A stretch of 64,000 bases of DNA, taken from contig OZ242180.1 in NCBI GenBank assembly GCA_965205485.1, forward strand, positions 736,001-800,000, written 5' to 3'. The position numbers and the translations under genes are program-made. Positions 1,494 to 29,324 of this stretch are shown one piece after another; within the stretch, counting starts at the first letter, position 1; each line of letters starts with the position of its first letter. The notes beneath the pieces were generated by a model. That model was not told the DNA's origin and made no database searches. It saw only the letters and a program-made list of their open reading frames with translations. Origin of the DNA: Candidatus Latescibacterota bacterium (GTDB lineage: Bacteria > Latescibacterota > UBA2968 > GCA-2709665).

Positions 1494-1560
1494 AATTCAT
1501 CATTAAATCATCAATATAGCGCTATAAATCAACGTTATTTCAACAAGATTTGGTTATATT
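1494..1560 (+). promoter_or_regulatory. Conserved four-half-site promoter, copy A
   Basis: AATTCA-N5-AAATCA-N15-AAATCA-N5-ATTTCA-N12-TATATT. Confidence 0.75.
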
Positions 1561-2246
1561 AACATAATCCTGATCGTAAGATTCTCGCTCGTCACTTCGG
1601 TCGAGCTGATCAGGCTGTGATGCACGATGCAAAACCCGGTCGCCAATAAGGACATCCCGTCGTTCAGTTCACGGCGGTTCAGTGGTGGACCATACACATC
1701 AGGAGCGAGATTGTTGCCGCGAATGCTAAGAATCCGAGTGCCTGAATCGTCGAACGCAAGACCAGGGAGATTCTGGATCTTCGAGAGACTGGTATTGCGA
1801 CTAATTAGGAAAGTCGAGGGATAAATTATCTCACAAACTGCACTGTGGATTGATCTTGTCGTTCTCCTTTGTTTGCCGGCGGTCTCGAGAATTGCCATTT
1901 GCCTGCTTCATCTGGCGCATCGGTTAGCGGGTGCGGTTGAGAGTATCGCCGATAGATGTGAGTATATCGAGGGATGCAAGATACAGACCGCATCGCGTTG
2001 ACATGACGTGTGAGAAATGAGGATTGCAGGAGCCGTCGGCGGAAGAACGGTATTCCGAAGACGGTTACGATCGACTATTGAGCCCGGGGCATCTTTCGAT
2101 CCGGAGGGAAGGCGAACAAGCACGTAGCCATTGATCCCGTTTGCGATGTCGGGGCCTCACGTGGTGTTTACGCGGAAATATCGGTGGCCGGCATTGATGA
2201 AGAAACAAAATTCGTAACTCCCCAATCGGATTTGGGAAATCCTCGG

Positions 2247-2453
2247 ATGAATTCTCGAACTTATCGCGGCAGAGATTACGTTGCCCATGACAGTCGCAAG
2301 ATGCGGAAGTGCCTGAAATGCGCGAGGATGTTTAACAGCGCCGGACCCGAAAACCGGATATGTGGAAGGCACGGAACAAAACGATCAAAATACGAAGAAT
2401 GGGCGGAGGGGCCTGGGGAGGGTCTCTTGAATCCCGGTGATGACGACGTTTGA
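2247..2453 (+). CDS. Small putative zinc-ribbon protein
   Basis: RKCLKCARMFNSAGPENRICGRH gives a CxxC...CxxH metal motif; start uncertain (2184 or 2247). Confidence 0.55.
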   Translation: MNSRTYRGRDYVAHDSRKMRKCLKCARMFNSAGPENRICGRHGTKRSKYEEWAEGPGEGLLNPGDDDV

Positions 2454-2783
2454 GTGAATCACAGGTCCGGATGGTCCATACGGGACTGAAGACGCCGACA
2501 TTGTCCAGCTAAGCAAACAAGCCTCTGTATCGACCCCCTTCTGCGCCATCGGCAAGCTTCAGACTTCCTTTCCATGCGATGTCCACTCCGCCGCGATGCG
2601 CCCGGCCGATCGCACATACACGCCTCCTCTTTTCCACAGTCTTTGACGATCGGTTCCTGGCCCCTCACTCCGTGTCCCGGCCTTCCCGCCTGGTCTGTCT
2701 GTAATCACGATATTATAGATCAAGTGCTGTCATTTGTATCTGCATCTCGCGGATTTCGGACCTTCGCATGTAAGATAAGCCAA

Positions 2784-2850
2784 AATTCATCATAAAATCA
2801 TTAGAAATGTCGAATAATTCAACATTAGTTCAACAAAAAATCGTTAAGTT
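2784..2850 (+). promoter_or_regulatory. Conserved four-half-site promoter, copy B (upstream of kinase 1)
   Basis: AATTCA-N5-AAATCA-N15-AATTCA-N5-AGTTCA-N12-TAAGTT. Confidence 0.8.
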
Positions 2851-3045
2851 ATCACCTTACAAAGAAACGACTCGTGGAAGTCTCCATCTCAGATGGCTTG
2901 AAATCTGCTGGTGCCGGATAGAACGGATATACGGGTTGAACCAAATGTGGTGTTCTGTCCCGGTTAAAGGTTGGCCAAATACGGCGGGAGACTCAGGGAA
3001 CAGGACAATGGTCCCGTTCAAACCGGACCGCGGAGGAAGCTGAAT

Positions 3046-6000
3046 ATGGATTCCAGGAACGCGCAAGCCCGTCACAGGAAACAGGTCTTCGTTGTCGCCT
3101 GCACGGTCGGATTGATGGTCCTTGTCGGCTATACAATTCGCAACTATCTGAGCGGCGAGGTACTGGCGATGTCGACCCACAGTGTCATGACGTTGCTCGT
3201 GGCTGGCGGTCTGGCCGGACTCCTGCTGGGCGCGGAAGCTCGAAAATCCTATCGCGTCGTCTTGTTGGGAGTCGGGATCGGGCTGCTTTGGCTTTCCGCG
3301 TTTACACATAACTTCCTTTATTTTCACCTCCTGATGCCCTTGCTGTTTTTCTTTTTTCTTGGCAGACGCGAGGGCGGAATTCTGACAGGTTTCTTCTCTC
3401 TTGTAGCGGCCGTGTTGTTGCTGGCGCCGGGGCTGGCCGGCACGTTCGTCTACGAAACCGAGCAAGTTATCAGGTTCCTCGTCGGGTTTGTCTTCGTTAC
3501 AATCATCGCGTGGGGCCACGAATCTTCCAGCCAACGCCTTTATGACCACCTTCTGGCAAACAACGAACAGCTCGAAAACGAGCGGAGACAACTGGAGCGG
3601 GCCCTGGAACAGATCACTGAAACCGAAGCCCGACTGGAACAGACGGTCTCCGAACTGCACGACCGAAGCCAACTCATGAAGACTGTCTTCGACAATATGG
3701 ATGAGGGCGTGGCGGTCGCCGATGCGGACGGCAAATTGCTCCTGTTCAACCCCAGCGCGGAGCGCATTCTGGGCATGGGCCTGATGGATGCGACGCCCGA
3801 TGAATGGTCGGACACGTACGGCGCCTTCTATCTGGATAAGGAAACCCGCGTTCCAACCGAACAACTTCCCCTCGTGCGCGCTCTGCAGGGAGAAAACACG
3901 AACAATCTGGAATATTTCGTGCGCAATGAGAAAAAGCCGGGCGGTACCTACGTCAGCGCGAAGGGCCGATTCATACGAGGCACCAACGGTACTGGCGAAA
4001 AAGTCAAAGCCGCTGTGGTTGTGTTTAGCGATATCACCAAGCATAAGGAGCAGGAAGCAGCACTTTTGGAAAACATCGGCCAGCTGAAGAAACAGGCCCT
4101 GCTTATGGAAACGGTATTCAGAAGCGTCAGCGACGGCGTGGTCGTGACCGGTACGGATGGTGAATTCCTGTTCGTCAATCCCAAAGCCCAAGACATTGTC
4201 GGCATGGGACCGACGGAATCACCGGCTGATGAATGGGCCGAGACGTACGGAACGTTTTATCCGGACAAAGTGACCCCCGTTCCATCGGAAGAACTCCCGC
4301 TCATGCGCGCCATGCACGGCGAGACAACCGACGACGTCGAGTTGTTCATCCGCAATCAGGAAAGACCGGACGGGGTCTACATCAGCGTGAGCGGAAGACC
4401 GCTTCAGGACGATTCCGGCGAGATCGAGGGTGGGGTCATCGTACTCCGCGACGTCACCGTACAGAAGGCGACCGAATCGAAGTTAAAGAAAACCGTCCGC
4501 GGCCTTCAGGAGCAGACCCATCTGATGGAAACAGTCTTCGACAGCATCAGCGATGGTGTGATCGTTATCGATAAGAATAAGAAAACTCTGATTTTCAATC
4601 CCAGCGCGAAACGCATTCTCGGCTTGCACGTTCCGGATACGAGCTTTTCAAATTGGTCGGATACATACGGCATTCACACCATAGATGGAGAAACGGTCCT
4701 GCCGCAGGACGAGCTTCCGCTGGTGCGCGCCGTCCGCGGGGAGCCGTCGGATGGTGTCGAGCTGCTCGTACGCAACCGGGAAAAGCCGGAGGGTGTCTAC
4801 ATCAGCGTCAGCGGCAGACCCTTGCGGGGCGAGACGGATGTCATTACGGGCGCGTGTCCACTTTCCGGGACGTGACTGAGATCAAGGAAGCAGAGAGAGA
4901 TCTGAAACGAACGGCCGACAACCTGCGAATGCAGACTCACGCCATGGAGACCATATTCAACAGCATCAGCGACGGCGTGGTCGTTGCCGACGAAGACGGG
5001 AACTTCACGATCTTCAATCCCAGTGCGGAACGGATGGTCGGAATCGGGATGACGGAGACCGGCCCCGATCAATGGACGGACCAATACGGTATTTTCTTTC
5101 CCGATCGGGAAACGCCCTATCCAATGGACGAACTTCCGCTGGTTCGCGCCATTCAGGGCGAACCCTCCGATGAAGTGGAAATGTTCATTCGAAATCCGAA
5201 CGTACCGGAAGGCGTCTACATAAGCGTCAGCGGCAGACCCCTCCGGGAGTCGGGTATCGCCAAAGGCGGCGTGATCGTATTCAGGGACGTCACCGAGCGC
5301 AGACTCGCGGAAGAAGCGCTTTCTCAGGCGTTCGCGCAGGGAAGGCTGGAGATTGTGGACACGATCCTCCACAACATCGGAAACGCGATCAACAGTGTCG
5401 CCACTGGCCTGGGGACGATTCACGAGGAGTTGTCGAGAAACGAACTGTTACGTCGCCTGTCCGCGCTTGCAGCGGCTATTGAGGCGCATCGGGACGATTG
5501 GATAACCTATCTGAAAACGGACCCGCAGGGCCAGAAAGTGATGCCGTTCATTCTTGGCCTCGCCCATGACTTTGCCGAGCAAAACGCGCAGCTGACTCAG
5601 ACGGTGGGACGCGTGGAGAGCCGGGTTGCGCACATCGTCGATATCATCCGAACCCAGCGAACGATCGACACGGGAGCCCTTGCGCGAAAGGACATCAGCA
5701 TTGGAAAGGCCATATCCGACGCCACCAAGCTGCTCCAGGATTCGCTCGGCAAGAGAGGAGTCCGGGTTGAGGTCGACTGCCGGAATGCGCCGGAAGAGAT
5801 TCGAATCCAGGAGAGCAAGTTTCATCAGATGCTGGTCAATCTCATCAAGAATGCCATCGAAGCCATCGACGATCTGGAGAAAACCGTCGGAGTCCGGGAG
5901 AAGCCCCGCATTCAGATCCGGTCCTACGTTCAGGAGGACTACCTTGTCATCGACGTCATCGACAACGGCATCGGTATCGAAGAAAAGCGCCTGAAGATCA

Positions 6001-6200
6001 TCTTCGCAGCCGGATATACGACGAAAGAGGTGGGGAGCGGGCTGGGTCTTCACTCAATCGCGAATTTTATAATCGGTTCAGGCGGGCAAATTTACCCGAT
6101 AAGCGCAGGCTACGGCAAGGGAACCACTATGCGCGTCAAGCTGCGGCTTTCTTCGGTGGTGCCGGGGTCCGAGGCTGAGGACGGAGATTCGCTTTCCTGA
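3046..6200 (+). CDS. Membrane-bound multi-PAS sensor histidine kinase (NtrB-like), split by a frameshift near 4850
   Basis: Hydrophobic N-terminal helices; 4 PAS repeats (METVFxSxSDGVVV...RDVT); H-box ILHNIGNAIN; N-box NLIKNAIEA; DNGIG and GSGLGL; ORFs 2971-4875 and 4653-6200 join if one G is restored (ITGGVSTFRDV); GGAGG before ATG 3046. Confidence 0.9.
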
Positions 6201-6322
6201 ATCGCCGTCGACAGTCATGTGTAATGGGACACAGCGACAGATTGTGCGCCATCGTCGAATCCTGGAACTGATGGTGCAGTTCTAACGATATGAAACGCAG
6301 GACAACAACGCAGAGGTATTCG

Positions 6323-8218
6323 ATGGATTTCAGTAATCTTAAAACCCGTCGCGTGTTGATCGTCGATGACCAGAAAGAAATCCACGACGACTTTGCGGAA
6401 ATGTTGCGGCCTCGATTCATGGAAACCGTCACGGATGAGCTCGCGTCAGCCTTCACGCAGCAGACGGTCGGATCGTTTCTTCCGGAATTCGAGCTCCTGC
6501 ACGCGAACAGTGGCGAGGATGCCTGCGAGGTTATCAAGTCGGAGAAGGCAGCCGGACGGCCCATATGCGTCGCATTCGTTGACATTAGAATGCCGCCGGG
6601 GATCGACGGCATCGAAACGATCCGTCGGGTGCGGACCATCGATCGTGACATCGAGGTCGTCATCATGACCGCTTACACGGACAAGTCACTGGCCGAAATC
6701 ATCCACGATATGGAGTTACTCCACAAAGTGCTCTATATCCGAAAGCCTTTCGCACGGGAGGAAATCCAGCAGATCGCGCTTTCACTGGTTGGGAAATGGA
6801 ACGTGGAACAGGAGTTGGCGGCAAGGCGAAGCCAGCTGAATGACAGTCATCAAAGGCTTGAAGCCGTACTCGATGCCACTGGAGACGCGCTGGCCATGTA
6901 TGACGTCACCGGCAACCTGGTGTTTGCCAATCGCAGGTACGAAAGGGTACTCGACCTGCCGAAGAGCGAATTGCAAATGATGTCTCCGAAGGCCTTCAAG
7001 GAGCGGTTTGATGAGAGATTTCGAGAACCTGATCTGACTGACATGGAGGGAAGGTTCATTTTCGGGAGCAAGGGTAAAGTCGTAGAAAGGGCCGAGGCAG
7101 ACAATTTGCCCGGCAATCGTCTGTTCTATCGATCCGTAGCCCCGGTGAGCGATATCCAGGGAGAAATCATCGGCGATCTGTACGTGTACCGCGACGTGTC
7201 CAGAGAGATTCAGGTCGAGCGTATGAAGGCCGAAGTACTTCGCCTGCGCACCGAACTCAAGACGACCTACTCCTTCTCAGGCATGGTCGGCTCCAGCGCC
7301 CCGATGAAGCAGGTGTACGCGCTGGTGAAGCAGGCTGCCGAGAGCGACATTACCGTGTTGATCCAGGGCGAGAGCGGCACCGGCAAGGAACTTGTTGCGA
7401 AGTCCTTTCATTTCAACAGCCACCGCAAAGAGGGTCCGTACCTCACCATCAATTGCGCTGCCATTCCGGAGGCGCTGATCGAGAGTGAACTGTTCGGACA
7501 CGAAGAGGGCGCCTTTACGGGGGCGACGAAGCGGAGGATAGGCGTCTTTGAACGAGCCACGGGGGGAACGGTCTTCCTGGACGAGATCGGAGACATGGAC
7601 CTGGCCCTTCAGGCCAAATTGCTGCGCGTCCTGCAGGAGCGAGAGATCCAGCGCGTTGGTACAACGACCCCGATCCCGGTAGACATCCGGCTGGTCGCCG
7701 CCACCAACAAGGACCTGGAGGATGCGGTAAAGACCGGCAGATTCCGCGAAGACCTGTTCTATCGAATCTCCGTTTTCCCGATCGCGATTCCGCCGCTCCG
7801 CGAACGCCGCGAAGACATTCCGTTGCTGGCGAAACACTTCCTCGAAAAGCACACGAAACGCAACGGCAAAACCATCAGTGGCATTTCCACGGCCACGCTG
7901 CGTCTGTTGTTGCAGTACGATTGGCCGGGCAACGTTCGCGAACTCGAGAACGCCATCGAACGCGCCGTATTGCTCGAGACAACCGACGTTCTGCAGGTGA
8001 ATAACCTGCCGCCGCAACTCTCGCCGATCGTAGATTCCGGAACGGGCGGCGCGGCGCCAATGTCTGTGCTCCCACTGGCGGAAGTCGAACGGCAGGCGCT
8101 GGTCAACGCCCTTGAAGTATCCGACAACAACGTAACCGAAGCAGCACGTGCCCTCGGTGTCGGACGCGCGACACTGTACCGGAAATTGAAGAAATACAAC
8201 CTGATTGCCGGTCACTGA
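6323..8218 (+). CDS. Sigma54-dependent enhancer-binding response regulator 1 (REC-PAS-AAA+-Fis HTH)
   Basis: VLIVDD...FVDIRMPPG receiver; GESGTGKE Walker [24 protein letters not shown]-terminal [16 protein letters not shown]. Confidence 0.95.
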
Positions 8219-8294
8219 ACCTCGGCAGTTGCTGGTACGTCCCTATACTCGGGTTCTGCCAAAGACAGTTGAAATCCTACAGGGACTGTGAGTC

Positions 8295-8555: not shown

Positions 8556-8565
8556 GAACATCCAG

Positions 8566-9235: not shown

Positions 9236-9271
9236 TGTCTCAAATTGAGACTTGCGTTTCGATTCGTGACA
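9236..9271. promoter_or_regulatory. Tandem bEBP upstream activating sequences
   Basis: TGTCTCAAATTGAGACT (9236) and CGTTTCGATTCGTGACA (9255), 19 nt apart, ~200 nt upstream of a -24/-12 promoter. Confidence 0.65.
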
Positions 9272-9443
9272 CATCAAATGGGATTGGGTATAACTTATTG
9301 TATTCATTTGTCTTGTATGGATCACGGTCGGTCGGATCGCAACGCCGGCGTTCCATTTCGAAACAAATGCGAATAATGTCCTCTCTGCGAGAAATAGTTC
9401 ATAAGTTCTTTGTTTAAAAGGATTTAAAGATATCCTGCGGCTT

Positions 9444-9458
9444 TGGCACGGCTTCTGC
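9444..9458 (+). promoter_or_regulatory. Sigma54 (-24/-12) promoter of the giant adhesin
   Basis: TGGCACGGCTTCTGC matches TGGCACG-N4-YTGC; AAGGAG RBS and ATG at 9531 follow. Confidence 0.8.
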
Positions 9459-9530
9459 TTGCAATGGCGGAGCGAACATTCCGCGCGCCCTTTACGGGCT
9501 GCAATCATCCATTTCAAGAAGGAGCCGGCA

Positions 9531-12500
9531 ATGCACGTTGGATGCTTAGAGATTCTCTTCAAATTTCACGGTCTGTTACCTTATTTCAATCTCTCCAGAC
9601 GGCGCCCCAGTCTTGCGAGGTCAACAGCGCTGACGGCGAAGACCTTCCTTTTCGGAGCCGCCATCCTGTTGATGCTTCCTACGAACGCGATCGCCAACGA
9701 CCCCACGGTCAGCCTCAGCGGTCCGACGTACACGTTGGGGGGCCATCCATTTGTTGTGGACATCACCTTTTCGGTGTCGGTGACCGGGTTCGAGCAGAGC
9801 GACGTGGCGGTGGGCAACGCTTCGGTTATGGCCTTCTCCGGTTCAGGGAGCAGTTATGAGATCACGCTCCATCCGTCGGCCAGCGGCGAGGTGACCGTGG
9901 ACGTGGCCGCGAACGTGGCTAACGATATCGCCGGCAATGGCAACAGCGCGGCGACACGGTGGACGGGGACCGCGGACCTGGATCCTCCATCAGTCGATAT
10001 CACGGGTCCGTCGGTCGCTCAGACCGGTTCGTTCACCGTGAACATCGCGTTTTCGGAGCCGGTGGGTGTGCACGGGCATCCCTTTGAGCAGGGGGACGTG
10101 ACGGTGGGTAACGGGTCGGTGACGGGATTCTCCGGTTCGGGGGCCAGCTATTCGATCACGATCACGCCGTCGGCCAGCGGGACGGTGACCGTGAACGTGG
10201 CGGCGGGCGGGCGTGGCCAGGGACGCAGGTGGCAATGCCAATACCGCGGCGAGCCAGTTTTCGGTACAGGCCACATTGAATTCTCCGCCGCAGATCTCGC
10301 TGCCGGGCGACCAGACGTACGAGCAGGGCCAGACGATCTCGGGAATCGATTTCAAGGTGACCGATGAAGACGGTGACGAGGTGACCCTCACGGTATCGGG
10401 GCTGCCCTCCGGATTGTCCTACACGAACTCGCTCCTGCAGGGCACGGTCTCCACCAGCGCAACGGCCCAGGACTACACCGTCACCGTCTCCGCCAACGAC
10501 GTCGTGAACCCGGCCGTGACCGGGACCTTCACCATCACCGTGACCGCGCCCGCGCCGCCGGCGAACAGACCCCCGGAGATTTCGGTGCCGGGCGACCAGA
10601 CTTACGAGCAGGGGCAGACGATCACAGGAATCGATTTCAAGGTGACCGATGAAGACGGAGACGAGGTGACCCTCACCGTATCGGGCCAGCCTTCCGGGTT
10701 GTCCTACACCAACTCCCTCCTGCAAGGCACGGTGTCCGCCGACGCGGCGACGCAGGATTACACGGTCACCGTCTCCGCCGATGACGGCGTGAACGCCGCC
10801 GTGACGGGGTCCTTCACCATCACCGTGACCGCGCCCGCGCCGCCGGCGAACCGTCCGCCGCAGATCACGGTGCCGGGCGACCAGACGTACGAGCAGGGGC
10901 AGACGATCACGGGAATCGATTTCAAGGTGACCGATGAAGACGGAGACGAGGTGACCCTCACCGTATCGGGTCAGCCTTCCGGGTTGTCCTACACCAACTC
11001 CCTCCTGCAAGGCACGGTGTCCGCCGACGCGGCGACGCAGGATTACACGGTCACCGTCTCCGCCGATGACGGCGTGAACGCCGCCGTGACGGGGTCCTTC
11101 ACCATCACCGTGACCACACCCGCGCCGCCGGCGAACCGTCCGCCGCAGATCACGGTGCCGGGCGACCAGACGTACGAGCAGGGGCAGACGATCACGGGAA
11201 TCGATTTCAAGGTGACCGACGTCGACGGAGACGAGGTGACCACAACCGTATCGGGCCAGCCTTCCGGGTTGTCCTACACCAACTCCCTCCTGCAAGGCAC
11301 GGTGTCCTCCAGTGCAACCGCCCAGGACTACACGGTCACCGTCTCCGCCGACGACGGCGTGAACCCGGCCGTGACCGGGACCTTCACCATCACCGTTACC
11401 GAGCACGCGACCACGCCCCCGGCGAATAGCCCTCCGCAGATCACGGTGCCTGGCGACCAGACTTACGAGCAGGGGCAGACGATCACAGGAATCGATTTCA
11501 AGGTGACCGATGAAGACGGCGACGAGGTGACCACAACCGTATCGGGCGCGCCTTCCGGGTTGTCCTACACCAACTCCCTCCTGCAGGGTACGGTGTCCTC
11601 CAGTGCAACCGCCCAGGACTACACGGTCACCGTCTCCGCCGACGACGGCGTGAACGCCGCCGTGACGGGGTCCTTCACCATCACCGTGACCACACCCGCG
11701 ACCACGCCCCCGGCGAACAGCCCTCCGGAGATCACGGTGCCGGGCAACAAAACGTTCGAGCAGGGCGAGACGATCACGGCTTTCTGGCCTACGGTAAGCG
11801 ATGCGGACGGCGACGCGGTAAGGCTGACACTGTCGGGTCTGCCGTCAGGGCTGTCCTACAGGAACGGCATGGTGCAGGGCACGGTGTCCGCAACCGCGGC
11901 GACGCAGGATTACACGGTCACCGTCTCCGCCGACGACGGGGTGAACCCTGCGGTCACAGCGACCTTCACAATCACCGTGACCGAGCCGGGGGGCACTCGA
12001 CCTGCGAACAGGCTGCCGGAGATCACGGTTCCTGGCGACCAGACGTACGAGCAGGGACAGACGATCACGGGAATCGATTTCAAGGTGACCGATGAAGACG
12101 GTGACGAGGTGACCCTCACGGTATCGGGCCTGCCCTCCGGGTTGTCCTACACGAACTCGCTCCTGCAAGGCACGGTGTCCGCAACCGCGGCGACGCAGGA
12201 TTACACGGTCACCGTCTCCGCCGATGACGGGGTGAACCCTGCGGTCACGGCGACCTTCACAATCACCGTGACCGAGCCGGGGAGCGCGCGACCTGCCAAC
12301 AGGCTGCCGGACATCACGATGCCGGGCGACCAGACGTACGAGCAGGGACAGACGATCACGGGAATCGATTTCAAGGTGACCGATGAAGACGGAGACGAGG
12401 TAACCCTCACTGTATCGGGCCTGCCCTCCGGGTTGTCCTACACAAACTCGCTCCTGCAAGGCACGGTGTCCGCAACCGCGGCGACGCAGGATTACACGGT

Positions 12501-18500: not shown

Positions 18501-19314
18501 CGGGCGGATGGACCTGACGCGGGTGGGCGACGTCGACCTGGCATTGACGGCGGACGCCTTCGCCGTGAGCACCGTCTCCGAAGCCGGGGCGGGGCTGAGG
18601 GCCGCCACGGGCGACGCCCAACGCATTCGCATGATGGTCAACGGCGCCACGGGCTGGTCCGTAACGCCTGATTCGCGGATGGACCTGAGCCTGGCGCTCG
18701 GCGCCCGCGTCGACGGCGGCGACGTCGAATCAGGGCTGGGCGCCGAACTGGCCGGCGTGCTCTCGTTTTCGAATTGCCGCATCGGCCTGGACGTGGAGGT
18801 GCGCTCGCACTGGCTCGCGGCGCACCAGGATCGGGACTTCAGGGAAGGGGGCCTTAGCCTGGCGCTGCGCCTGGATCCCGGCTCTGACAAGAAGGGATTG
18901 GCGCTGTCGCTAGCGCCGGAGTGGGGAGAGAATGCCTCCAGAGGAGTCGATTCGATCTGGAAAGGCGGGCGGATGCCGGCTTATCAAATCGGCAGCGACG
19001 GTTTGGACTGGCGCCCCAGTCGGACACGCGTGGCCCTGGGTTACGCACTGGAGACCTGGGAAGGCCGCGGCCGGATGGAGCCCTTCGTGGAGATGGACGT
19101 TGCGGACCGGGGACTACACCGCCTTGGCGGCGGTCTGCGCCTCAATCTACCGGGCGCCTCCGTTGGATCGGCGGGCGCTGGCAACAGCAATCTGAGGATG
19201 GAGTTGCTCGGCGAATATCGACTCACCGGGCTGAACGCCGCGACCGGAGAGTCCGCCACACGCGGCGGGAGTCGAGACTATCGTCTCGGATTGTCCCTCT
19301 TCCGGGATTTCTGA
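9531..19314 (+). CDS. Giant autotransporter-type adhesin (~3,260 aa; Ig-like, He_PIG/cadherin-like, Calx-beta, cadherin, FN3, C-terminal beta-barrel), frameshift near 10205
   Basis: Extended signal peptide ending TNAIA; Thr/Val-rich Ig repeats; Calx-beta (DEVVEAAETF, GTIVDDD); cadherin (ENTPPGTAIG, LDFETR); FN3 (WSAPADNGSPISDYDVRYR); barrel region WTLWGRG...YIGADY, ending LSLFRDF; removing a duplicated GGGC at 10205-10212 joins the two ORFs. Confidence 0.88.
10279..12860 (+). repeat. Nine near-identical tandem 285/291-nt coding repeats
   Basis: Units start at 10279, 10564, 10849, 11134, 11425, 11716, 12007, 12298, 12589 (NxPPxIxxPGDQTYEQGQTITGIDFKVTDEDGD...). Confidence 0.95.
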
Positions 19315-19347: not shown

Positions 19348-21735
19348 CTACTGTGTCCTACCCAGTCGATAGCCGACGCGCGGCTCGTTGAATATCCATT
19401 TGGGGTCCTTTGCGTCATCGCCCAGTTTTCGCCGGACGTTTTTGACCGCAGCGTGGAGCGGCCGCCTGTCGGTGTTGCCTCTCTTGGCCCAGATACGTCT
19501 TAGCATGTCTTCGTAGAAGACGGTCTGGCCCGCGTTGAGGGAAAGTTCCTGGAGTACGAAGTACTCGATTCTCGTCAGATCCACGAGCTGTCCGGCAATC
19601 ATGACTCTGCGGCGGGTGTAGTCGATCTTCAGATCCGCCAGTACGAACGGTTCTTTGGGTATGGCCTTGAATCGTGGGGCCCTGGCGCGCAATACCGCCC
19701 TGATCCTGGCCACCAACTCCGTGGGCGAAAAGGGTTTGGTCAGGTAATCGACAGCACCTTCGTCCAGAGCCCGGGTAACGGCGTCTTCGTGCCCGTATGC
19801 GGAAAGGAAAACAACCGGTATGTCCACGCGCTCGAAGATTTCCTTCATCAATTCGATTCCGTCGCTGCCCGGGAGCACCAGGTCCAGCAGGGCCAGTCCC
19901 GGACCATGTTCTTTCAGAAGGTCCAGAGCCTCATTCGGATTGCCCGTCACGACGGGAACGTAGCCGGCACCAGAAAGGGCATGGCGAACGCTTCGCAGCG
20001 TCTGGGGATCATCGTCCACAACGAGTATCCTGGTCCGGTCCGCACCCACCAATCTCGCGCCCGCGACGGCGTAACGGGAATCCGCACTGACAATCGCACC
20101 GGCTTCTTCGGCAACCGGTATGGTAAACGTAAACCGTGTACCCTTGTCCGGTCCATCGCTATCCGCCCAGATCCGGCCCCCATGCGCCTCAACAATGCCC
20201 TTGCATATCGACAGGCCCCAGCCACCTCCGCCGTCGTTTTCGAGGCTTGCGTCTTGCCTGCTTTGGGAGGACCTGCGGAAGAGTTGCGACATCTGCTCAG
20301 GAGACACTCCCCGCCCCCTGTCGGTTACACTGATCGCAACCTTGTCCCCATCCTGGGCGGCTTCGACACGTATGGGCGATGCTCCCGGCGAATTCTTCGC
20401 TGCGTTCGTAAGCAAGTTGACCAGAACCTGTACGATTCGGCCAGGGTCCGCCATAACGGGCGGAAGGCCGGGAGCCATTTCCATGTGGATATTGTCCCGG
20501 TCCCATCCACTCAGAACGGTATTCCGCGCCTGATCGAGCATCGCCATGACCATGGTAGGCATGGGATTGACAACGAGAGTGCCGGTCTCGATACGCGCCA
20601 CGTCCAGCAGGTCATTGATCAGGCCGGTCATCCGGTCGGCCTGTTCGCTGATTATTCTGAGGAACTGGACCATCTCGGCCTGACGGAACGGGAACGTGTC
20701 GCTCAATGCCGTCGTAGCGGAACCCTTGATTGCCGCCAGCGGCGCCCGCAATTCGTGACTGACCTTGGCAAGAAACTCAGCCCTCATATGTTCGAGTTCA
20801 TCCATAGGCGCGGTGTCCTGCAGGGTCACGACAGAGGACGACACGCGCCCGTCGTCCGAACGAATGGGCGTGGCGTTCAGGAGCGCCTTGACGCTGCGTC
20901 CGTCAGATATCTCAAAAACGACTTCCTCGGCACGTACCGTCTCGCCCTCGCTCAGCGCCTGGGCGATAGACAGTTCTTTCAGGGAAACCTGCCGCCCGTC
21001 GGCCCGGCGGATGGTCACATCTTCCAGGAAGTCTTCCAGCCGCGGTTCGCCAGTCAGCAGGCCCCCCAGGATCCTCACCGTCTCCCGGTTGTACGACACC
21101 GGCTCTCCGCTGACGGCGTCGAAGACAACCACGCCCACCGGGGCTGTGTTGACCACGGCTTCCCGGTCGGCCATTGCCCGCTGCTGGTCCCTGTAGCGCC
21201 GGGCGTTGGCGATTACCAGCGCCGCCTGGGAGGCGAACATGACCAGTGTCTCTTCGTCTTCATCGGTAAACTCCGGACCGCTCACCTTTCCGGCCAGGAA
21301 GAAGTTCCCGACGCTCTCGCCGCGGTGACGGATCGGCGCGGCCAGGAAGGACATGGTCTCGGCCGTCGATCCGGGAGCCCTCACTACCGGGAGTCCGAGC
21401 GCGCCGACGTGGCTGTATAAGTCTCGCAGACGCAGGGGTTCCTCAAATCCGCCGAGGTACTCGTGTAGCGGCGCCGCCTCCGGGAAGTTTCGCATTTGTC
21501 CGACCCAGTGAGGCGGTATGCCGGAGACAATGAATTCCTGTACTTGTCCTTCGTCGTCAGGCAGTGTGACAACGCAGTACCTCGCGTCAGTCACGGACCT
21601 GGCGCTGTCCACGACTCCCTGAAGCACTGTTTCGAAGTCAAGGCTTTCGTTGATGCGCTGGCTGGCCTGGCTCAACCGCGACAGACGCTCCCGAAGCTTT
21701 CCGTTCTCCGCCTGAAGTTTCTCTGTGAGTTCCAT
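19348..21735 (-). CDS. Fused cytoplasmic sensor-regulator: GAF-PAS-HisKA-HATPase-REC-OmpR/PhoB winged helix
   Basis: GAF (FLAAPIRHRG...FTDEDEETL); H-box SHELRAPL; NLLTNAAK; GWGLSICKGIVEAHGG; receiver ILVVDDD/LLDLVLPG/KPF; wHTH ending NVRRKLGDD...IFNEPRVGYRL; AGGAGG before ATG 21735. Confidence 0.92.
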   Translation of the reverse strand: MELTEKLQAENGKLRERLSRLSQASQRINESLDFETVLQGVVDSARSVTDARYCVVTLPDDEGQVQEFIVSGIPPHWVGQMRNFPEAAPLHEYLGGFEEPLRLRDLYSHVGALGLPVVRAPGSTAETMSFLAAPIRHRGESVGNFFLAGKVSGPEFTDEDEETLVMFASQAALVIANARRYRDQQRAMADREAVVNTAPVGVVVFDAVSGEPVSYNRETVRILGGLLTGEPRLEDFLEDVTIRRADGRQVSLKELSIAQALSEGETVRAEEVVFEISDGRSVKALLNATPIRSDDGRVSSSVVTLQDTAPMDELEHMRAEFLAKVSHELRAPLAAIKGSATTALSDTFPFRQAEMVQFLRIISEQADRMTGLINDLLDVARIETGTLVVNPMPTMVMAMLDQARNTVLSGWDRDNIHMEMAPGLPPVMADPGRIVQVLVNLLTNAAKNSPGASPIRVEAAQDGDKVAISVTDRGRGVSPEQMSQLFRRSSQSRQDASLENDGGGGWGLSICKGIVEAHGGRIWADSDGPDKGTRFTFTIPVAEEAGAIVSADSRYAVAGARLVGADRTRILVVDDDPQTLRSVRHALSGAGYVPVVTGNPNEALDLLKEHGPGLALLDLVLPGSDGIELMKEIFERVDIPVVFLSAYGHEDAVTRALDEGAVDYLTKPFSPTELVARIRAVLRARAPRFKAIPKEPFVLADLKIDYTRRRVMIAGQLVDLTRIEYFVLQELSLNAGQTVFYEDMLRRIWAKRGNTDRRPLHAAVKNVRRKLGDDAKDPKWIFNEPRVGYRLGRTQ

Positions 21736-21867: not shown

Positions 21868-21933
21868 AATTCACCAAAAATCAACAAAAAATACGGAAAC
21901 TTCAGCGCAAATTCAAACAAATTTTCCTATTGT
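21868..21933 (+). promoter_or_regulatory. Conserved four-half-site promoter, copy C (divergent from the fused regulator)
   Basis: AATTCA-N4-AAATCA-N15-ACTTCA-N5-AATTCA-N12-TATTGT. Confidence 0.75.
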
Positions 21934-22039: not shown

Positions 22040-22960
22040 ATGTATCGGACAGACGTGCGGAGGATTGATATTCTGGAACATAGATTGCGTTGGCAAAAGC
22101 GCGCGATCATCGGTTTGCTTCTTTTGTTTCTCTTCACGGCTTCACCGGCCTTGAGTACGGCGACGAAATGGTTTGCGCAGCTACAGACCGGGAACGTGCC
22201 GGTTCCGGGATTATCTGCGGACCGGTCTTCGGCAGGCGTCATTTCGAAATGGGTGCCGTCACCTGAGTCTGAGGCCGGCGGGTTGAGCAAGACTGCACTG
22301 GCTGCTGACGAAGTCCTGAAGATCGGCAGGTTACAGATCGTGAATGAAGAGGGTAACGTTGTCGCGTTCCTGGGTTACGACGAGGCAGGGGACGGGGTGC
22401 TGGCCATCCGCAACAGTAAGGGAAAGTACCGTATAATGGCCGGCTTGGACGAATCCGGAGGAGGCTTGTTGAACGTTTTCAACTCAACTGATCGGCCCGT
22501 TGCGGTCATGGGCGCTGACGATACGGACCAGGGCAATGGATTTATGAATGTCAGCGGCGGATCGGGGACTGTTGCCGGTGTGTTTTTTGGCGAGTCGGGA
22601 GATGCGTCTATGACGTTTTTCAACAGCAATGGAAACCCCGCTTCCGCCTTTGGATCGGATGCAAACGGCAACGGTTTTCTGGTTACCCTCAGTGAGTCGG
22701 GACTGCCGATCGGCACGCTTGCAGCCGATCCCGGCGGCATGGGTACTCTGGCGATTTCGGGGGGTAAGTTCAGGGCTTACGTAGACGAAGACGGGAATGG
22801 CGCAGCGGAGACGCTGGGAGACGACGGAAGCGTCCGGTGGACTTCTGAAATGAAAACGGGTGGTACTGGTGTTTTGTTGGGAGATCTCGACGGTGACGGC
22901 GACGTGGATTTCGAAGACTTTCTCACGTTTGCCGCAAATTTCGGGAAAACCAGCGGGTAG
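22040..22960 (+). CDS. Exported or membrane-anchored Gly-rich beta-repeat protein with C-terminal dockerin-like EF-hand
   Basis: AGGAGG RBS; hydrophobic AIIGLLLLFLFTA; ~22-aa repeats (GxLxIxNxxGxxxxxxGxDxxG); C-terminal GDLDGDGDVDFEDFLTFAANFG. Confidence 0.8.
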   Translation: MYRTDVRRIDILEHRLRWQKRAIIGLLLLFLFTASPALSTATKWFAQLQTGNVPVPGLSADRSSAGVISKWVPSPESEAGGLSKTALAADEVLKIGRLQIVNEEGNVVAFLGYDEAGDGVLAIRNSKGKYRIMAGLDESGGGLLNVFNSTDRPVAVMGADDTDQGNGFMNVSGGSGTVAGVFFGESGDASMTFFNSNGNPASAFGSDANGNGFLVTLSESGLPIGTLAADPGGMGTLAISGGKFRAYVDEDGNGAAETLGDDGSVRWTSEMKTGGTGVLLGDLDGDGDVDFEDFLTFAANFGKTSG

Positions 22961-23009
22961 AACGTACGCACTCGAGCCTGAGGACAGCCCGAGGGATCGA
23001 AGCGTAGAA

Positions 23010-23315
23010 GTAGGGCCTACCTGCCGGGCCTCTCTGCGTACTTACCCGCGCAGGCAGGCGTTTACGGTTTGAGGGTGGGGCGGACATTCCTGTCTGCCCG
23101 CATCGATGCCGACGAAGCGTCCGCGCAGATGCGTTCTGTGCGCACTTCCGCTCCACGTCCTATCGAGAAGACGGGAGATTCTTCGCTCCGCTCTGAATGA
23201 CATGCTTAGCCATATCAGTGATCGACAGGCATCCTTTACACGTTAGCCCGAACTGTCATCCTGAGGACTTGCCCTGAGCTTGTCGAAGGGTGCCCCCTTG
23301 GCCGACGAAGGATCT
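23010..23315. repeat. Cluster of REP-like palindromes of several families
   Basis: GTGGGGCGGACATTCCTGTCTGCCC (23075); AGATTCTTCGCTCCGCTCTGAATGACA (23176); TGTCATCCTGAG...CGAAGGATCT (23254-23315) containing CCCTGAGCTTGTCGAAGGG (23272). Confidence 0.7.
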
Positions 23316-23498
23316 ACTGCAGCATGAGATGATCCCTGTACGCCATGCACGTGACGATATCCAAGAGGCAGCACGTCCGCCTTTCCATCCTGCGATGTCG
23401 GTTCCCCTAAAATTCCTCGATCGCTGTTGCAGAAAACGTGGCCTGCTTCAAGTCTCCGTTGATGTGAATCCGTGTCTCCTTGGACGAAAAAACACCGG

Positions 23499-23565
23499 AA
23501 TTCACCAACAAATCATCACAAATGGCTAATTTATCAGTGATAGTTCAAAAATAAAGTGTTATCTT
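23499..23565 (+). promoter_or_regulatory. Conserved four-half-site promoter, copy D (upstream of the LRR protease)
   Basis: AATTCA-N5-AAATCA-N15-TTATCA-N5-AGTTCA-N12-TATCTT with extended TG. Confidence 0.75.
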
Positions 23566-24160
23566 ATGCCCTGCGCACTGACGCAATTTGCGACACATTT
23601 GCTGACGATAGCGTCGCGAGGTCATTCTCGAACGGGGTATCGTCTGAACAATCGAGCCGGAATGTCGTCCCGGGATTCCACCGCCCTGAGCAGCACCGTG
23701 CCACTGTTGTGGTTCAGGATACCTCAATCTGAGACGGCCGTCAGCCTGGCATCCCCGTCAGGTCAACCTGAATTGCCGGCTTGTTCGGTTGGTTTCTTCC
23801 CGTCGACAAACCTCCTTCCTCTCTTTATTCCTTCTTCGCATTTTCCATCGATCCGCACCGCTGCGACCTGCGCCGGTTTGCACGGCAGACACGCCGCCCG
23901 CGGTCGGATCGATCCATATACAGCACCCGGGAGTGTCCCTTCGACGGGCATCCGCCCGCGGCGACGCTGTCCTCGAAACGCTTTCATCTTCGAATTCAAC
24001 CTGGGCCGGTCCCTGAGCCTGTCGAAGGGCCGGCGAAATAGATCTCAACTCTTTACTGTACACGGCAATACATCCGGCGGCTACTCATTTGGTAGCGGTC
24101 ACACACCCGGCAGTACCCCTTCGTGTCGCCGCTCGGGTGACGAGTAAATGGGAGGTAGCT

Positions 24161-27100
24161 ATGCAGAGGGGCCTGGTGGTTTCGGTATGCGCGGCACTGA
24201 CTCTGGTCGCAGCGACGTGGACAGGTGATATCGGCGTAATAGAGCCGCAATCCGTGTCTGCGCAGTCCGCGACATGCCCCGGCGACTTCAACGGCGACGG
24301 GAAGGTGAATCTGGCTGATTTTCTGGCTTTCGCCGGTGGCTTCGGCATGCGTTCCGGAGATGCCAATTTCAACGCGCGTTTGGATATGGACGGTAGCGGC
24401 TCGGTCGATCTGTCCGATTTTCTGGCATTCGCCGGGGTGTTCGGGACCAACTGCGAAGACCGGCCTCGCGGTTCGGTCAGCGGGGACCGGGCGGCGCTGG
24501 TTGCGCTGTACAATGCGACCGACGGGCCGAACTGGGTCGACAACACCAACTGGCTGACCGACGCGCCGCTCGGAGAATGGTATGGGGTAGAGACGGATGC
24601 TTCCGGGCGAGTCGTGGAGCTGAATCTCGGCGGAATCCTTGACGAAAGTGGATGGCCCGTGCCCCATGGCCTCCAGGGACGGATTCCGCCTGAAATCGGT
24701 GATCTCGCGAATCTGCAGCGTCTTATCCTGTATCGAAACAACCTATCCGGCTCGATTCCCTCAGAAATCGGCCAGTTGGCGGCATTGCGCGATCTGTATC
24801 TCCACTCCAACGAACTGAGCGGTACAGTTCCGCCGGAACTGGGGAGACTGGGTCAGTTGAGGATTCTAGATTTGAGTATTAACTACCTGGAGGGAGGCAT
24901 TCCACCGGATCTGGGAAGGCTGGTTCAGTTGACTAGCCTTGAACTTAACTCCAACCCGATGGGCGGACGAATTCCGTCGGCATTGGGCAACCTGAGAAAA
25001 CTGGACGTATTAAGGTTAGAATTTTGCCTGCTCAGGGGCCCGATCCCGCCGGAGTTGGGCAATCTGAGAAATCTGCGCTATCTGAGTCTAACTGAAAACG
25101 AACTCACGGGCGTCATTCCGCAGGCGCTGGGAAACCTAGGGGAGTTGGAATCCCTACATTTATTTCGTAACAAGCTTACGGGCCCGATCCCGCCGGAGTT
25201 GGGCAATCTCAGCAAGCTGCGCTCTCTGAGTCTATATGAAAACGAACTCACAGGCGTCATTCCGCAGGCGCTGGGAAACCTCGAGGCGTTGAAATACCTA
25301 TATTTATTTCGTAACAAGCTTACGGGCCCGATCCCGCCGGAGTTGGGCAATTTGAGAAATCTGGTTGACTTAAGTATCAGGAACAATGAGCTTTCCGGAC
25401 CTATGCCGGCTGAAATTGCGAAACTCGACAGACTACGTAGTTTGAACATTTCAGGCAATCGATTGACGGGTTCGATTCCACCGGAACTGGGAAGTCTCGC
25501 GGCGTTGGAAGACTTGAGTCTTGCAGAAAACCGTTTAAGCGGGCCGATTCCTCCCGATCTCGGCAACCTCGGCAATTTGCAGTACCTTACTTTAGGGGAC
25601 AATCTGCTGGAAGGCTCCATTCCACATAGTTTTTTACGCTTGAACCGGCTGATAGATATGGGCTGTCGAAATACCCGCGGCGTATGCATACCTGCGACGG
25701 AAGCGTTCAGGGAATGGGAGCGAGAGGTTGTAGCGCGTGGAAATGTGCACAGACCCTTACTTATCCCGCATTGCGACGAAATCGACAGACGCGGCCTGGA
25801 GGCCCTGTACGAGGCCACGAACGGCGACGGATGGACGCGGTCCAACGGCTGGCTCGAAGACAAGAATCTGAGTCGTTGGCACGGGGTGAGGACCGATGCC
25901 GTCGGCCGGGTCTCCGGTCTCGATCTGAGCGGCAACGGGTTGTCGGGATATCTTCCGGTCGAGTTGGGGCTGCTTGCCAACCTGAATGAACTGCGGCTCC
26001 GAAACAATGCGCTATCCGGCCGACTTCCGTTGTCGCTGACAGGTGCGCCACTGAAAGCAATTGACTACGGAGGCACGTCTCTGTGCGTGGTCGATAATGC
26101 CGATTTCCAGGAATGGCTAGACGGCATCCCGCGCCACGTCGGAACAGGGATCCAGTGCCTACCGCTTACAGACCGCGAAATCCTCGAATTGTTGTACCGT
26201 AACACCGATGGCACGAACTGGGACGAGAGCGCGGGTTGGCTGACCGACGCCCCACTGTCCGCGTGGCACGGCGTGGGCACAGACGAGGACGGCCGCGTCA
26301 TTAAACTCCAATTGCCAAACAACATCTGTCCGGCTTGATTCCCGTGGAAATCGGGCAAATGGGCAAACTGCGGATACTTGACCTTAACCGAAACAGGCTT
26401 TCAGGCTCGATTCCTCAGGAACTGGGTACACTGGCCCGTCTGAAGCGGCTCGAACTCTACGGGAATCAACTCAACGGCAAGATCCCGCGAGAACTCGGGC
26501 AACTGCGGGAATTGCAAGTGCTTCGTATTGGCTGGAACCAGCTTTCGGGTTCCGTCCCGTCAGAGTTGGGTCATCTGGACAGTCTGGAGCGACTCGATCT
26601 TTACAGGAATCAACTCAACGGCGAGATCCCGCGGGAACTCGGCAAGCTCGCTAACGTGACCGACCTGAACATCGGTAGGAATTTCCTCTCGGGCACGATT
26701 CCACCGGAACTGGGTGACCTGGGCCGTCTGGTGTGGCTCAATCTTGAACGTAATCAGCTCGTGGGTGGCATCCCCCCGGAACTTGGCAAGCCGAAAACGA
26801 TCGAGTCCATCAATCTTGCCGACAACCGGTTGACCGGGCGGGTTCCGCCCCAGCTTGGCGCCCTGGTCCGCCTGTCGGCTTTGAACCTGTCGGCCAACCA
26901 ATTAAGCGGTCCGATTCCCCCGGAACTCGGCAGGCTCGGCGATCTTCAGGAGCTTACGTTATTCGGCAACAATCTCTCGGGGCCGATCCCTGAGGAACTG
27001 GGTGAGCTCGCGAACCTGACTTCGCTGAATCTGGGCGACAATGGGTTCTCCGGACCACTGCCTGGCGAACTTGCGCAGGCCTTGAACCTCGAGAGTCTTG

Positions 27101-28818
27101 ACCTTCGGAACAACGCGCTTTCCGGTCGGGTTCCGGCCGAGTTGGGCAACCTCACACAGTTGACGTCGCTGATTCTCGCCGATAATCCCGCTCTTGCCGG
27201 TCCATTGCCTCTCGTATTCACGGCATTGGAGAAGCTCGAACGGTTCATGGCGGGTGGGACTGGACTGTGCCGACCGGCGAACACCAGCTTCGATACGTGG
27301 TTTGGCGCAATACCTGATCGACGTATTGTGCGCTGCGCGGGTGGGGCAGCCGTGTATCTCACCCAGACGATACAGTCGTGGGACGATCCGGTGCCGCTGC
27401 TGGCGGGCGAACCCGCGCTGCTGCGTGTGTTCGTGACTGCGCCAGGTGGGGGCGCGGCCACAATGCCTAGTGTGCGTGCCACATTCTTTGGGAATGATAC
27501 TCAACGCCACACAGTCCGTATTGTCGGGGGTATGCAGTCGATACCCACGGAAGTTTTCGAGGGCGATCTTGACATGTCCGCCAACGCCGAGATTCCGGGA
27601 TGGGTCATTACGCCCGGCCTCGAGATGGTGATCGAAGTCGACCCCGAGGGTACCCTGGCTACGGCGACAGGTGTGACGAAGCGAATTCCGGATTCCGGCC
27701 GCATGGTCGTCGATGTTCGATCCGTTCCCCCGTTTAGATTGACCCTGGTCCCGCTTCTCTCGACGAGTGACTCTGACGCATCTGTTGTCAAGACCGTGAC
27801 CGAAATGGCGTCGGATCCGCATAATCACGAGTTGCTCCGTGACCTGCGGACGCTTCTGCCAATAGCGACGTTCACCGTCAAGGAGCACGAGGCCATAGTC
27901 ATGTCGACACCGGACCCCAGAGAGAAGCTGAACCAACTTCAGGCTACGCGACTAATGGAAGGCGGTACGGGATATTGGCTGGGAATCTTTGTTGAGAGAA
28001 AAACAGGTGATCATATCTGGAACTCGGGAATTGCCATACTTGGAGGCTCAGTGAGTGTCTCACTCCCCGTTGCGAGTACGATAGCACATGAACTGGGGCA
28101 CAACCTTTCGCTCGATCACGCGCCTTGCGGCCAACCCGGAGCTATTGACCCCTGGTTCCCCCACGAAGGCGGTCTAATTGGCGCCTGGGGTTACGACTTT
28201 GGAAAACGTGCAACGGTCAACCCCAATACGCCCGACGTGATGTCCTATTGTGGTGGACGCAACTGGATCAGCGATTACTTCTACAGAAAGGCGTTCCGAC
28301 ACCGTCATTCCAACGAGGTTGCTGTGAAGTCAGCGCTGGCCGTCGCGAATCACGATCGCACACTTCTGCTGTGGGGCGGACGAGACAAGGTTGGGGTCCC
28401 GTACCTGGATCCCGCTTTCGTCGTTGACGCAGTGCCCTCCCTTCCTCCCGCGGGCGAAGATTACACGATCGAGGGAGCGACCGCTGACGGAATGCCTGTC
28501 TTCTCATACACGTTCGACATGCCGGTCACAGCAGACGCTGAGGGCGAAGAGACGAACTTTGTATTCGCCCTGCCTCTTCAGCCCGAATGGACCGGCAACC
28601 TGGCGAGTATCACGCTGTCCGGCCCCGGCGGCTCGGCCACGCTGGACGGGAGTACGGACCGTCCGATGGCCATCCTGCGCGATCTGCAGACGGGCCAGGT
28701 AAGCGGATTCCTGTCTGATCTTACGGCAGAGGAAGCGGCGCAGGCAGCGGAAGGCGCGTTCGCGGCCAAGCCCGGAACGGAAGCGATCTTCAGCAGGGGA
28801 ATTCCGGATCTTCGGTAG
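24161..28818 (+). CDS. Secreted dockerin-like / leucine-rich-repeat / metzincin (M66-like) zinc metalloprotease (~1,550 aa), frameshift near 26324
   Basis: GGAGGT RBS; signal peptide; paired GDFNGDGKVNLADFLAFAGGFG / DMDGSGSVDLSDFLAFAGVFG; 24-aa LRRs (LxxLxLxxNxLsGxIPxELGxL) with DRAALVALY...W caps; HELGHNLSLDH and DVMSYC Met-turn; restoring one A (PNNNLSGLIP) joins the ORFs. Confidence 0.88.
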
Positions 28819-29257
28819 ATGGTGAGCAGGATTCCAACAGCTGGCGGACTGGTGCGTCAACGCGGCCGGCCGTGCGCTCGTTCGGAACGCCGCCGCCTCC
28901 CATCGTGTGTCATCCGGATCATTAGCCGATTTATGAGCATTGCCTGGTCTTCGCAACTGGCAAAAAGCCGCTCCGACTCGTAATTGCGTTCCGATCGGCC
29001 GACTTCGGTCTGCTTGCCGCGGCGGTCCCGACAGGGAGCAATTCCGCTCCCCTCTCCGTGCCGGGGAGGGGCCGGGCGAGGGGTCGCCTTTCCCGACGTG
29101 AGGGTGGGGCCTGCCGGCTCCCCGCATGACCCGTTTTCTTCCCTTCCAGATCCGACGAACCCAATCCGTTTGACTTTCAGACCGACGCATCACTTCCACG
29201 GCGAGAAAACCAGTCGTTGTTGGATCGGTACGTTCCGGGCGGAGCGAAGTGACCCGA

Positions 29258-29324
29258 AATTCATCATAAAATCAGCAAAAAGGACCAAAAATTCAAAGCT
29301 AATTCGAAATAATTTCCGTATCTT
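29258..29324 (+). promoter_or_regulatory. Conserved four-half-site promoter, copy E
   Basis: AATTCA-N5-AAATCA-N15-AATTCA-N5-AATTCG-N12-TATCTT. Confidence 0.8.

Follow-up and report, generated by a model that had tools for sequence, protein, structure and literature searches.

What reads a promoter architecture that recurs five times between positions 1494 and 29324 of a 64,000-nucleotide (nt) stretch from a Candidatus Latescibacterota bacterium (hereafter the window, a part of the 5.13-Mb genome under study, G000)? A preliminary description of this DNA had proposed a single binder for the five sites, a fused sensor-regulator carrying a winged helix-turn-helix (wHTH) domain, whose divergent intergenic region holds one of them. 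As laid out below, the architecture marks 13 predicted promoters in the genome, and comparison among relatives makes it quite likely that this protein is their activator. The regulator and the five sites in the window are as follows.

19348..21735, minus strand: soluble 795-amino-acid (aa) GAF-PAS-HisKA-HATPase-REC-wHTH protein of the His761 type, assigned by Pfam; the proposed binder.
1494..1560, plus strand: site A, AATTCA-5-AAATCA-15-AAATCA-5-ATTTCA-12-TATATT, from the sequence, a fixed-spacing pattern and an independent matrix.
2784..2850, plus strand: site B, AATTCA-5-AAATCA-15-AATTCA-5-AGTTCA-12-TAAGTT, from the same three sources.
21868..21933, plus strand: site C, AATTCA-4-AAATCA-15-ACTTCA-5-AATTCA-12-TATTGT, divergent from the regulator and found upstream of all seven of its orthologues.
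23499..23565, plus strand: site D, AATTCA-5-AAATCA-15-TTATCA-5-AGTTCA-12-TATCTT, with an extended -10 (TG-T-TATCTT).
29258..29324, plus strand: site E, AATTCA-5-AAATCA-15-AATTCA-5-AATTCG-12-TATCTT, from the same three sources as A and B.

Coordinates, hexamers and spacings of these sites were as first described, including the first spacer of site C, which is 1 nt shorter. The signature places its boxes at offsets 0/11/32/43 and the -10 box at 61. Five sites proved too few, as the signature occurs 13 times in G000 and the regulon reaches well beyond the window, with eight further sites on the same contig (G000:C1) at 73233+, 197455-, 386918+, 391232+, 507977-, 530516-, 2733708+ and 4354847-. 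Run over G000, a matrix built from the five window sites gives 12 sites at 31.8-45.0 bits and one at 24.0, with the remainder at or below 19.3. The same set was recovered by a matrix trained without G000, on the divergent promoters of five orthologues of the regulator in other species (G003, G005, G010, G012 and G014; 73-79% protein identity). Its top 13 matches in G000 are the 13 sites, 12 at 24.9-38.0 bits and one at 20.0, followed by the next at 16.5; as site C shares homology with the training promoters, the other 12 alone count. The middle gap of 21 bp is essential to this result, as any other value between 11 and 33 returns 0-3 matches instead of 12. The five window sites score 24.9-36.0 bits with the independent matrix, and a single position among 24.8 million of shuffled AT-rich DNA exceeds 20 bits (the largest reaches 20.8). 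With the fixed-spacing pattern, sites A, B, D and E are matched, C being missed only because of its shorter spacer, and 100 of 100 shuffles of the window give no match. The right-hand part of the window does lack the motif, with no site above 13 bits from 29.4 to 64 kb. Across 62 distinct sites from G000 and its relatives, the unit is better written as an 8-bp box, WWWTCA-D-C, with a -10 of TAWNTT; these sites were gathered with the fixed-spacing pattern, so its columns are conserved by construction and the D column is imposed by it.

The 13 sites are likely promoters of the sigma-70 type. Their -10 boxes match TATAAT at 3-5 of 6 positions and four carry an extended -10 (TG). The absence of a TTGACA-like -35 element, which had been claimed for the five window sites, holds for 12 of the 13 (1-3 of 6 matches) and fails at site D (4 of 6). 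A -10 with a predicted activator site over a poor -35 is the arrangement of a class II activator-dependent sigma-70 promoter. If the -10 is taken as -12 to -7, the boxes lie at about -73, -62, -41 and -30. Between the end of the last 8-bp box and the -10 lie 10 bp, as in the pho box (excerpt of PMC1906773), which upholds the likeness first noted, and because the proximal geometry is that of the pho box, activation is likely.

Is the protein at 19348-21735 built for such a role? Its PF00072 and PF00486 matches both lie above cut-off, in the order that defines the OmpR/PhoB family (a receiver followed by a Trans_reg_C winged helix), and the closest PDB sequences to its REC-wHTH part are MtrA, BaeR and KdpE. 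It has the residues of a phosphotransfer-competent hybrid histidine kinase, with H327, N444, D472, G474, G476, D574, D575, D618, S645 and K667 invariant in 18 aligned homologues. The chain is without a transmembrane segment (highest 19-residue hydropathy 1.22). A full-length AlphaFold model (predicted local distance difference test, pLDDT, 74.9; predicted template modelling score, pTM, 0.41) together with Foldseek supports the domain assignments, and the Foldseek search with this model returned no solved relative spanning the whole protein. The best solved-structure match of the GAF domain is DosS GAF-A (PDB 2W3D, E 1e-28). In DosS/DevS GAF-A the haem ligand is His149 and the distal residue Tyr171 (excerpt of PMC4082495); the regulator has Arg119 and Phe146 at these positions, and we reject haem gas sensing of the DosS type. 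The best 120 database matches to the regulator are 55-96% identical, and 119 of the 120 carry the wHTH domain; the family is therefore large.

The size of the family bears directly on how a binder can be named. Of the seven wHTH genes in G000, five belong to the fused family and two encode stand-alone OmpR-type regulators. The five family genes occupy four loci, all with a divergent promoter of identical 11/21/11/18 layout. With five paralogues and such a promoter at each locus, adjacency is insufficient to name the binder; the argument first offered for the protein at 19348-21735 was inadequate, and it was the comparative tests that singled this protein out. Among 43 distinct family genes of G000 and its relatives with a readable start and helix, 33 have the layout upstream on the opposite strand, and the ten without a call are eight second genes of tandem pairs and two just below threshold. 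More distant metagenomic members, 33 retained from 80 loci after dropping the 43 weakest matches, three duplicates and one with short upstream DNA, were scored by an 'A-C/T' score with controls, the TCA-weighted score being uninformative there. A score of at least 10 is reached by nine on the divergent strand, by one when the same strand is scored and by 0.9% of 660 shuffles, and the 21-bp gap gives eight such matches against 0-3 for other gaps. When GTDB was scanned with the full-length alignment, the matches were for the most part generic kinases, with three closer ones (47-48%); by eye, none of these three shows an evident four-box promoter, and the gammaproteobacterial one lies inside a co-directional operon. 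Because the layout is common across the family, it must be the box sequence that identifies the paralogue.

The presence and absence of the signature across relatives points to one member of the family. In a comparison set of 15 genomes of one genus, orthologues (at least 73% identical; next best 61%) are found in G000, G003, G004, G005, G006, G010, G012 and G014, and a search of the seven other congeners with the wHTH domain alone found nothing above 64%. The fixed-spacing pattern occurs 11 (circular for G000), 8, 9, 6, 8, 8, 8 and 9 times in these genomes, respectively, and 1, 0, 1, 1, 1, 0 and 0 times in the orthologue-free G001, G002, G007, G008, G009, G011 and G013. It is absent from 26 of 26 more distant genomes, and the reversed pattern from all 41. 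To explain the distribution of the orthologue on an rpoB tree covering 24 genomes takes five gains or losses, and four contrasts between sister lineages are in agreement (G012 vs G001/G009, G003 vs G011, G005 vs G002, and G007 vs its sister clade). Neither an Arg-type pattern, derived from promoters of paralogues with arginine in the recognition helix, nor an unrelated palindrome tracks the orthologue split. One secreted target family tells the same story locus by locus: a His-type promoter stands at the head of its array in 7 of 8 orthologue genomes (the locus examined in G004 is the exception). It is missing from all 6 loci examined in four genomes without the orthologue; one of them has an Arg-type promoter in its place, as does a further array in G010. 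Because the signature comes and goes with the fused regulator's orthologue across related species, this regulator is likely the activator.

A third line of evidence links the recognition helix to the box. His761 aligns with R193 of KdpE, which is required for DNA binding and proposed to read bases (excerpt of PMC3264566), and R768 corresponds to the conserved KdpE R200. At base 7 of boxes 2-4, C occurs in 0 of 36 cases for the 12 His-type promoters, where 23 are A or G, and in 47 of 63 for the 21 Arg-type promoters, where none is A or G and all 63 are C or T. Recognition by arginine of the G opposite that C would be consistent with these counts. A matrix from 18 Arg-type promoters picks a different top set in G000 and scores the window sites 9-23 bits below the His-type matrix, so that the latter is preferred at all five. 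We treat the correspondence between helix and base as a hypothesis, not as statistical proof; His761 likely lifts the need for C at box position 7, which would help to separate this regulon from those of the paralogues.

Several observations weigh against this assignment. The close relatives compared amount to 15 genomes of one genus, and 3 of the 7 orthologue-free assemblies are in 5-100 contigs (G013 in 3). Since the His-type proteins form one clade, the link between helix and base counts as a single event and may be due to other residues. The motif is not defined by His alone, because G002 has no pattern match although one of its paralogues (60% identical) is of the His type, with a different box. 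G001, G007, G008 and G009 are orthologue-free yet keep one good site each, in G008 and G009 within single-contig assemblies; either sites of this kind decay slowly or they are read by a paralogue as well. Sites D and G000:4354847 score 27-32 bits with the Arg-type matrix too. Sites D, 4354847 and 197455 share flanks, and some sites are copies of one promoter cassette. Finally, only 7 of 82 open reading frames (ORFs) with a dockerin motif stand behind a site, and the regulator is therefore not a master switch for all such proteins.

Some of these observations are what would be expected if the sites were read jointly or mainly by the Arg-type paralogues, with the window protein as one contributor. 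The shared layout at all four family loci of G000, the Arg-type scores of two His-type sites and the single intact sites in G001, G007, G008 and G009, which have only Arg-type members, all fit this account. Against it, G002 and G009 have several other paralogues and, lacking the orthologue, 0-1 sites, and the C or T that Arg promoters invariably show at base 7 of boxes 2-4 is mostly A or G in boxes 3-4 of the present sites. We consider the account unlikely. Quite improbable, in turn, is that the protein binds and represses, its boxes over -41 to -23 blocking RNA polymerase at an extended -10 promoter. The TG of four sites and the 4-of-6 match of site D to the -35 consensus would suit repression, as would a separate sigma-70-like match at 21829-21858, just upstream of site C (the regulator's own minus-strand promoter was not identified in the promoter search, and no autoregulation is proposed). 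Nine of 13 sites, however, have no extended -10 and 12 of 13 no usable -35, the distance from box to -10 is nearly fixed, as for activator contact and in the pho box, and the layout is kept in distant family members. An unrelated binder, with the fused regulator as target or bystander, is very improbable: the two stand-alone wHTH regulators of G000 offer candidates of the OmpR/PhoB or GlnR-like kind, the TCA core is pho-box-like, and the sites are AT-rich with A-tracts after each box that a nucleoid protein might read in phase, but all five orthologue-free genomes tested have at least two stand-alone OmpR-type regulators without having the motif set (compared for presence only), and the box sequence varies with the paralogue clade of the adjacent fused gene. 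That the sites are a dispersed repeat or mobile promoter cassette without current selection for a binder is hardly credible, since the shared flanks and the paralogous genes or defence cargo behind several sites are set against pattern-free columns that are uneven over the 62 sites (several near boxes at 1.0-1.7 bits vs 0-0.7 in the middle of the long spacer), a layout that recurs in promoters located by position and not by pattern, a same-strand ORF (sometimes only a small one) after all 13 sites of G000, and no Rfam match in window 1-36500.

How might the fused regulator activate from four boxes? The steps can be proposed by analogy with the biochemistry of OmpR/PhoB proteins and of kinases. 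A cytoplasmic signal at the GAF and PAS domains would trigger autophosphorylation of His327, from which the phosphoryl group would pass to Asp618. Each kinase dimer, with its two REC-wHTH modules, could then place two winged helices head-to-tail on one pair of boxes spaced by 11 bp. With one dimer on each, the pairs at about -73 to -55 and -41 to -23 would both be occupied; 32 bp or three helical turns lie between them, which puts them on the same side of the DNA, and the turn that is skipped may leave space for the kinase bodies. The proximal pair would stand in for the -35 element and bring in sigma region 4. The distal pair would touch the alpha subunit, in the manner of the GlnR activation complex.

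Several known systems resemble parts of this scheme. As in E. coli PhoB and the pho box, we observe 11-bp direct repeats with a TCA core, no -35 and an OmpR-type wHTH (excerpts of PMC1906773 and PMC3264566); unlike PhoB, the present system has two pairs with a helical turn left out between them (21 bp, not 11), a kinase-fused regulator and a KdpE-like recognition helix. A PhoB orthologue was rejected (TIGR02154 135.8 against a cut-off of 296.2 bits), and the scanned target proteins include no phosphate-transport families. E. coli KdpE (PDB 4KNY/4KFC) resembles the regulator in its REC-wHTH (E 1e-27) and in AT-rich 6-bp repeats 5 bp apart, and differs in having one pair at -72 to -50, a separate membrane kinase and another box sequence (excerpt of PMC3264566); here too orthology was rejected (NF007820 111.6 against 325 bits, His at the R193 position, no kdp genes seen among the targets). 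In the GlnR complex, four wHTH protomers sit head-to-tail on two pairs of sites, the upstream pair contacting alpha and the downstream pair sigma region 4 and the beta flap. Actinobacterial GlnR thus shares the two pairs for four protomers that are predicted here, whereas it is an orphan without a kinase, and its two 22-bp boxes lie 6 nt apart with a 28-bp period rather than 32 bp (excerpt of PMC10235972 for both). Bacteroides hybrid two-component systems likewise unite kinase, receiver and DNA-binding domain in a single chain, but they are membrane proteins with an AraC-type output, in contrast to a soluble protein with GAF-PAS input, OmpR-type PF00486 output and dispersed sites (excerpt of PMC11253607). 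With neither a membrane sensor nor an AraC-type domain, the regulator is not of that type.

The genes behind the sites suggest what is controlled. In the window, the predicted direct and indirect targets are the following.

2247..2453, plus strand: conserved 68-aa cysteine-containing small ORF, zinc-finger-like by eye, likely target of site A (comparative alignment).
3046..6200, plus strand: membrane (MASE6-like) multi-PAS histidine kinase, predicted target of site B (Pfam).
6290..8218, plus strand: REC-PAS-AAA+-Fis sigma-54 activator 1, in an operon with the site B kinase (profile matches).
9443..9459, plus strand: putative sigma-54 (-24/-12)-type promoter before the giant adhesin-like gene (consensus match only).
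9531..19314, plus strand: giant secreted Ig/Calx-beta/cadherin/Fn3 repeat protein, in two frames in the assembly with a break near 10210 (Pfam).
22040..22960, plus strand: secreted protein with a C-terminal dockerin-like motif, predicted target of site C (motif expression).
24161..28818, plus strand: secreted dockerin-leucine-rich repeat (LRR) protein with a weak M66-like C-terminal match, predicted target of site D (Pfam).
29540..29704, plus strand: 54-aa predicted membrane small ORF after site E (sequence; no Pfam match).
30769..32892, plus strand: REC-PAS-PAS histidine kinase, likely target of site E (profile; 913 nt after an E-type site in G006).
33253..35145, plus strand: REC-PAS-AAA+-Fis sigma-54 activator 2 (profile matches).

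The direct outputs would thus comprise secreted LRR/dockerin-like and FlgD-Ig proteins, small ORFs, a Zorya operon and two kinase/sigma-54-activator operons, one behind each of sites B and E. Site A also lies upstream of site B in G003, G004, G005, G006 and G014. The 68-aa ORF follows site A in 6 of 7 aligned stretches (that of G012 is without site A) and begins about 70 nt past the -10 in G010 and G014; the longer ORF that contains it has no Pfam match. The frameshift in the site B kinase near 4853 is an assembly error, as contigs from 3 of 4 runs are continuous (the fourth has no coverage) and G014 has one 1052-aa ORF, and the same holds for the frameshift in the dockerin-LRR gene near 26326, again with continuous contigs in 3 of 4 runs and no coverage in the fourth; these independent contigs rule out gene decay at both. 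The same dockerin-like gene follows site C also in G005, G006, G010 and G014. A dockerin-motif ORF lies within 3 kb of 6 of the 13 sites versus 2.2% of random positions, by a lenient control. The -24/-12 promoter directly after activator 1, with a palindrome about 200 nt upstream, suggests a second regulatory tier, in which activator 1 would likely drive the giant adhesin-like gene from position 9443; this Ig/Calx-beta gene is a probable indirect target of the regulon.

Outside the window, the first genes behind the sites encode LRR/dockerin proteins (four sites), a secreted FlgD-Ig array, a type I Zorya operon, a UDG-like gene beside a WYL regulator and a conserved 48-aa membrane protein (G000:C1 about 73600-73750, site 73233). 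The Zorya operon (PADLOC) is headed by the site at G000:C1:197455 and belongs to a site class with defence cargo. G012 has a ZorA-like gene in this class, and elsewhere, including G006, the genes resemble defence proteins of the DUF262/DUF4268 type by eye; the single site retained in G001 and in G009 is of this class.

The activation principle itself is textbook. This analysis adds the dispersed regulon of 13 sites, its loss together with one orthologue, the correspondence of His or Arg with a base, and the list of targets. A characteristic trait of sponge symbionts is the secretion of eukaryote-like repeat proteins (LRR, WD40, ankyrin). Searches of titles and abstract openings in the open-access literature found no regulator or promoter motif named for such proteins, and nothing relevant on this architecture or such a regulon. 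Only tentatively do we extend the argument to the whole family: its soluble one-protein kinase-regulators may be modular switches that share one fixed promoter geometry, in which a single recognition-helix change from Arg to His would have given one member a private DNA code and a genome-wide regulon jointly activating eukaryote-like secreted repeat proteins, a sigma-54 adhesin cascade and Zorya in sponge-associated bacteria. If so, a transcriptional switch for the host-facing and defence proteins of a symbiont could be read from sequence alone. The 13 predicted sites in G000, several dozen in relatives and the sister paralogues with other boxes make three questions testable without culturing: promoter activation, single-residue specificity in the OmpR/PhoB fold and the signal that controls this subset of host-facing and anti-phage genes.

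Further promoters of the same layout were seen around the paralogues. About ten Arg-type (TCAC) promoters lie at G000:C1 182877, 269580, 399935, 437972, 601052, 2384580, 2670621, 4387230, 4405753 and 4418903; several precede large secreted proteins, and they are probably the regulons of other paralogues. G006 has six near-identical copies of one Arg-type variant. A promoter at G000:C1:1224865 (minus strand) resembles the divergent promoters of RRPVH-type paralogues of G002 and G005 and precedes a secreted repeat protein; G000 itself is without an RRPVH-type paralogue, and the promoter is possibly a remnant after regulator loss. At G000:C1:4405867-4407102, a short PAS-REC-wHTH member without the kinase core stands in tandem before a full-length paralogue, a pairing that also occurs in seven relatives.

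Exact copies of another motif, the palindrome TGWCKCA-WWW-TGMGWCA, number 13 in G000 and 4-14 in each of the 15 genus genomes, and nine outside genomes have none. Three copies fall in the window, on no assigned strand.

9236..9252: one-mismatch palindrome, candidate enhancer about 200 nt upstream of the sigma-54 promoter (motif search).
23579..23595: exact palindrome just after the predicted start of site D (motif search).
32948..32964: exact palindrome between the kinase and activator 2 genes (motif search).

The palindrome overlaps or flanks four His-type promoters and lies just past the predicted start in three. Sigma-54 activator 2 could be its binder, closing a feedback or feed-forward loop, as both are present in all 15 genus genomes; weighing against this candidate, close homologues of activator 2 occur also in 4 of 9 outside genomes that are without the palindrome. 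Another strong sigma-54 promoter follows a further kinase/sigma-54-activator pair at G000:C1:733137, about 3 kb to the left of the window.

Of the remaining features, a HigB-like toxin and HTH antitoxin pair lies at 242-832, and a second 54-aa small ORF, without family assignment, at 30066-30230. In G003:C60, a transposase-like ORF (by eye) follows site B at the usual start of the kinase. Window regions of about 23065-23400 and 29786-29933 have very high summed contig depth and many loose ends, and are dispersed repeats between sites and genes. Positions 36482-62622 hold a motif-free block of small enzymes (APH-family phosphotransferases, NUDIX, methyltransferases and S8/S9/S49 peptidases), with an AAC(3)-family acetyltransferase at 49215-50162. 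In a sponge-metagenome run, the contigs of a close relative cover 1463-9083 and 19357-23094 at about 92-94% identity.

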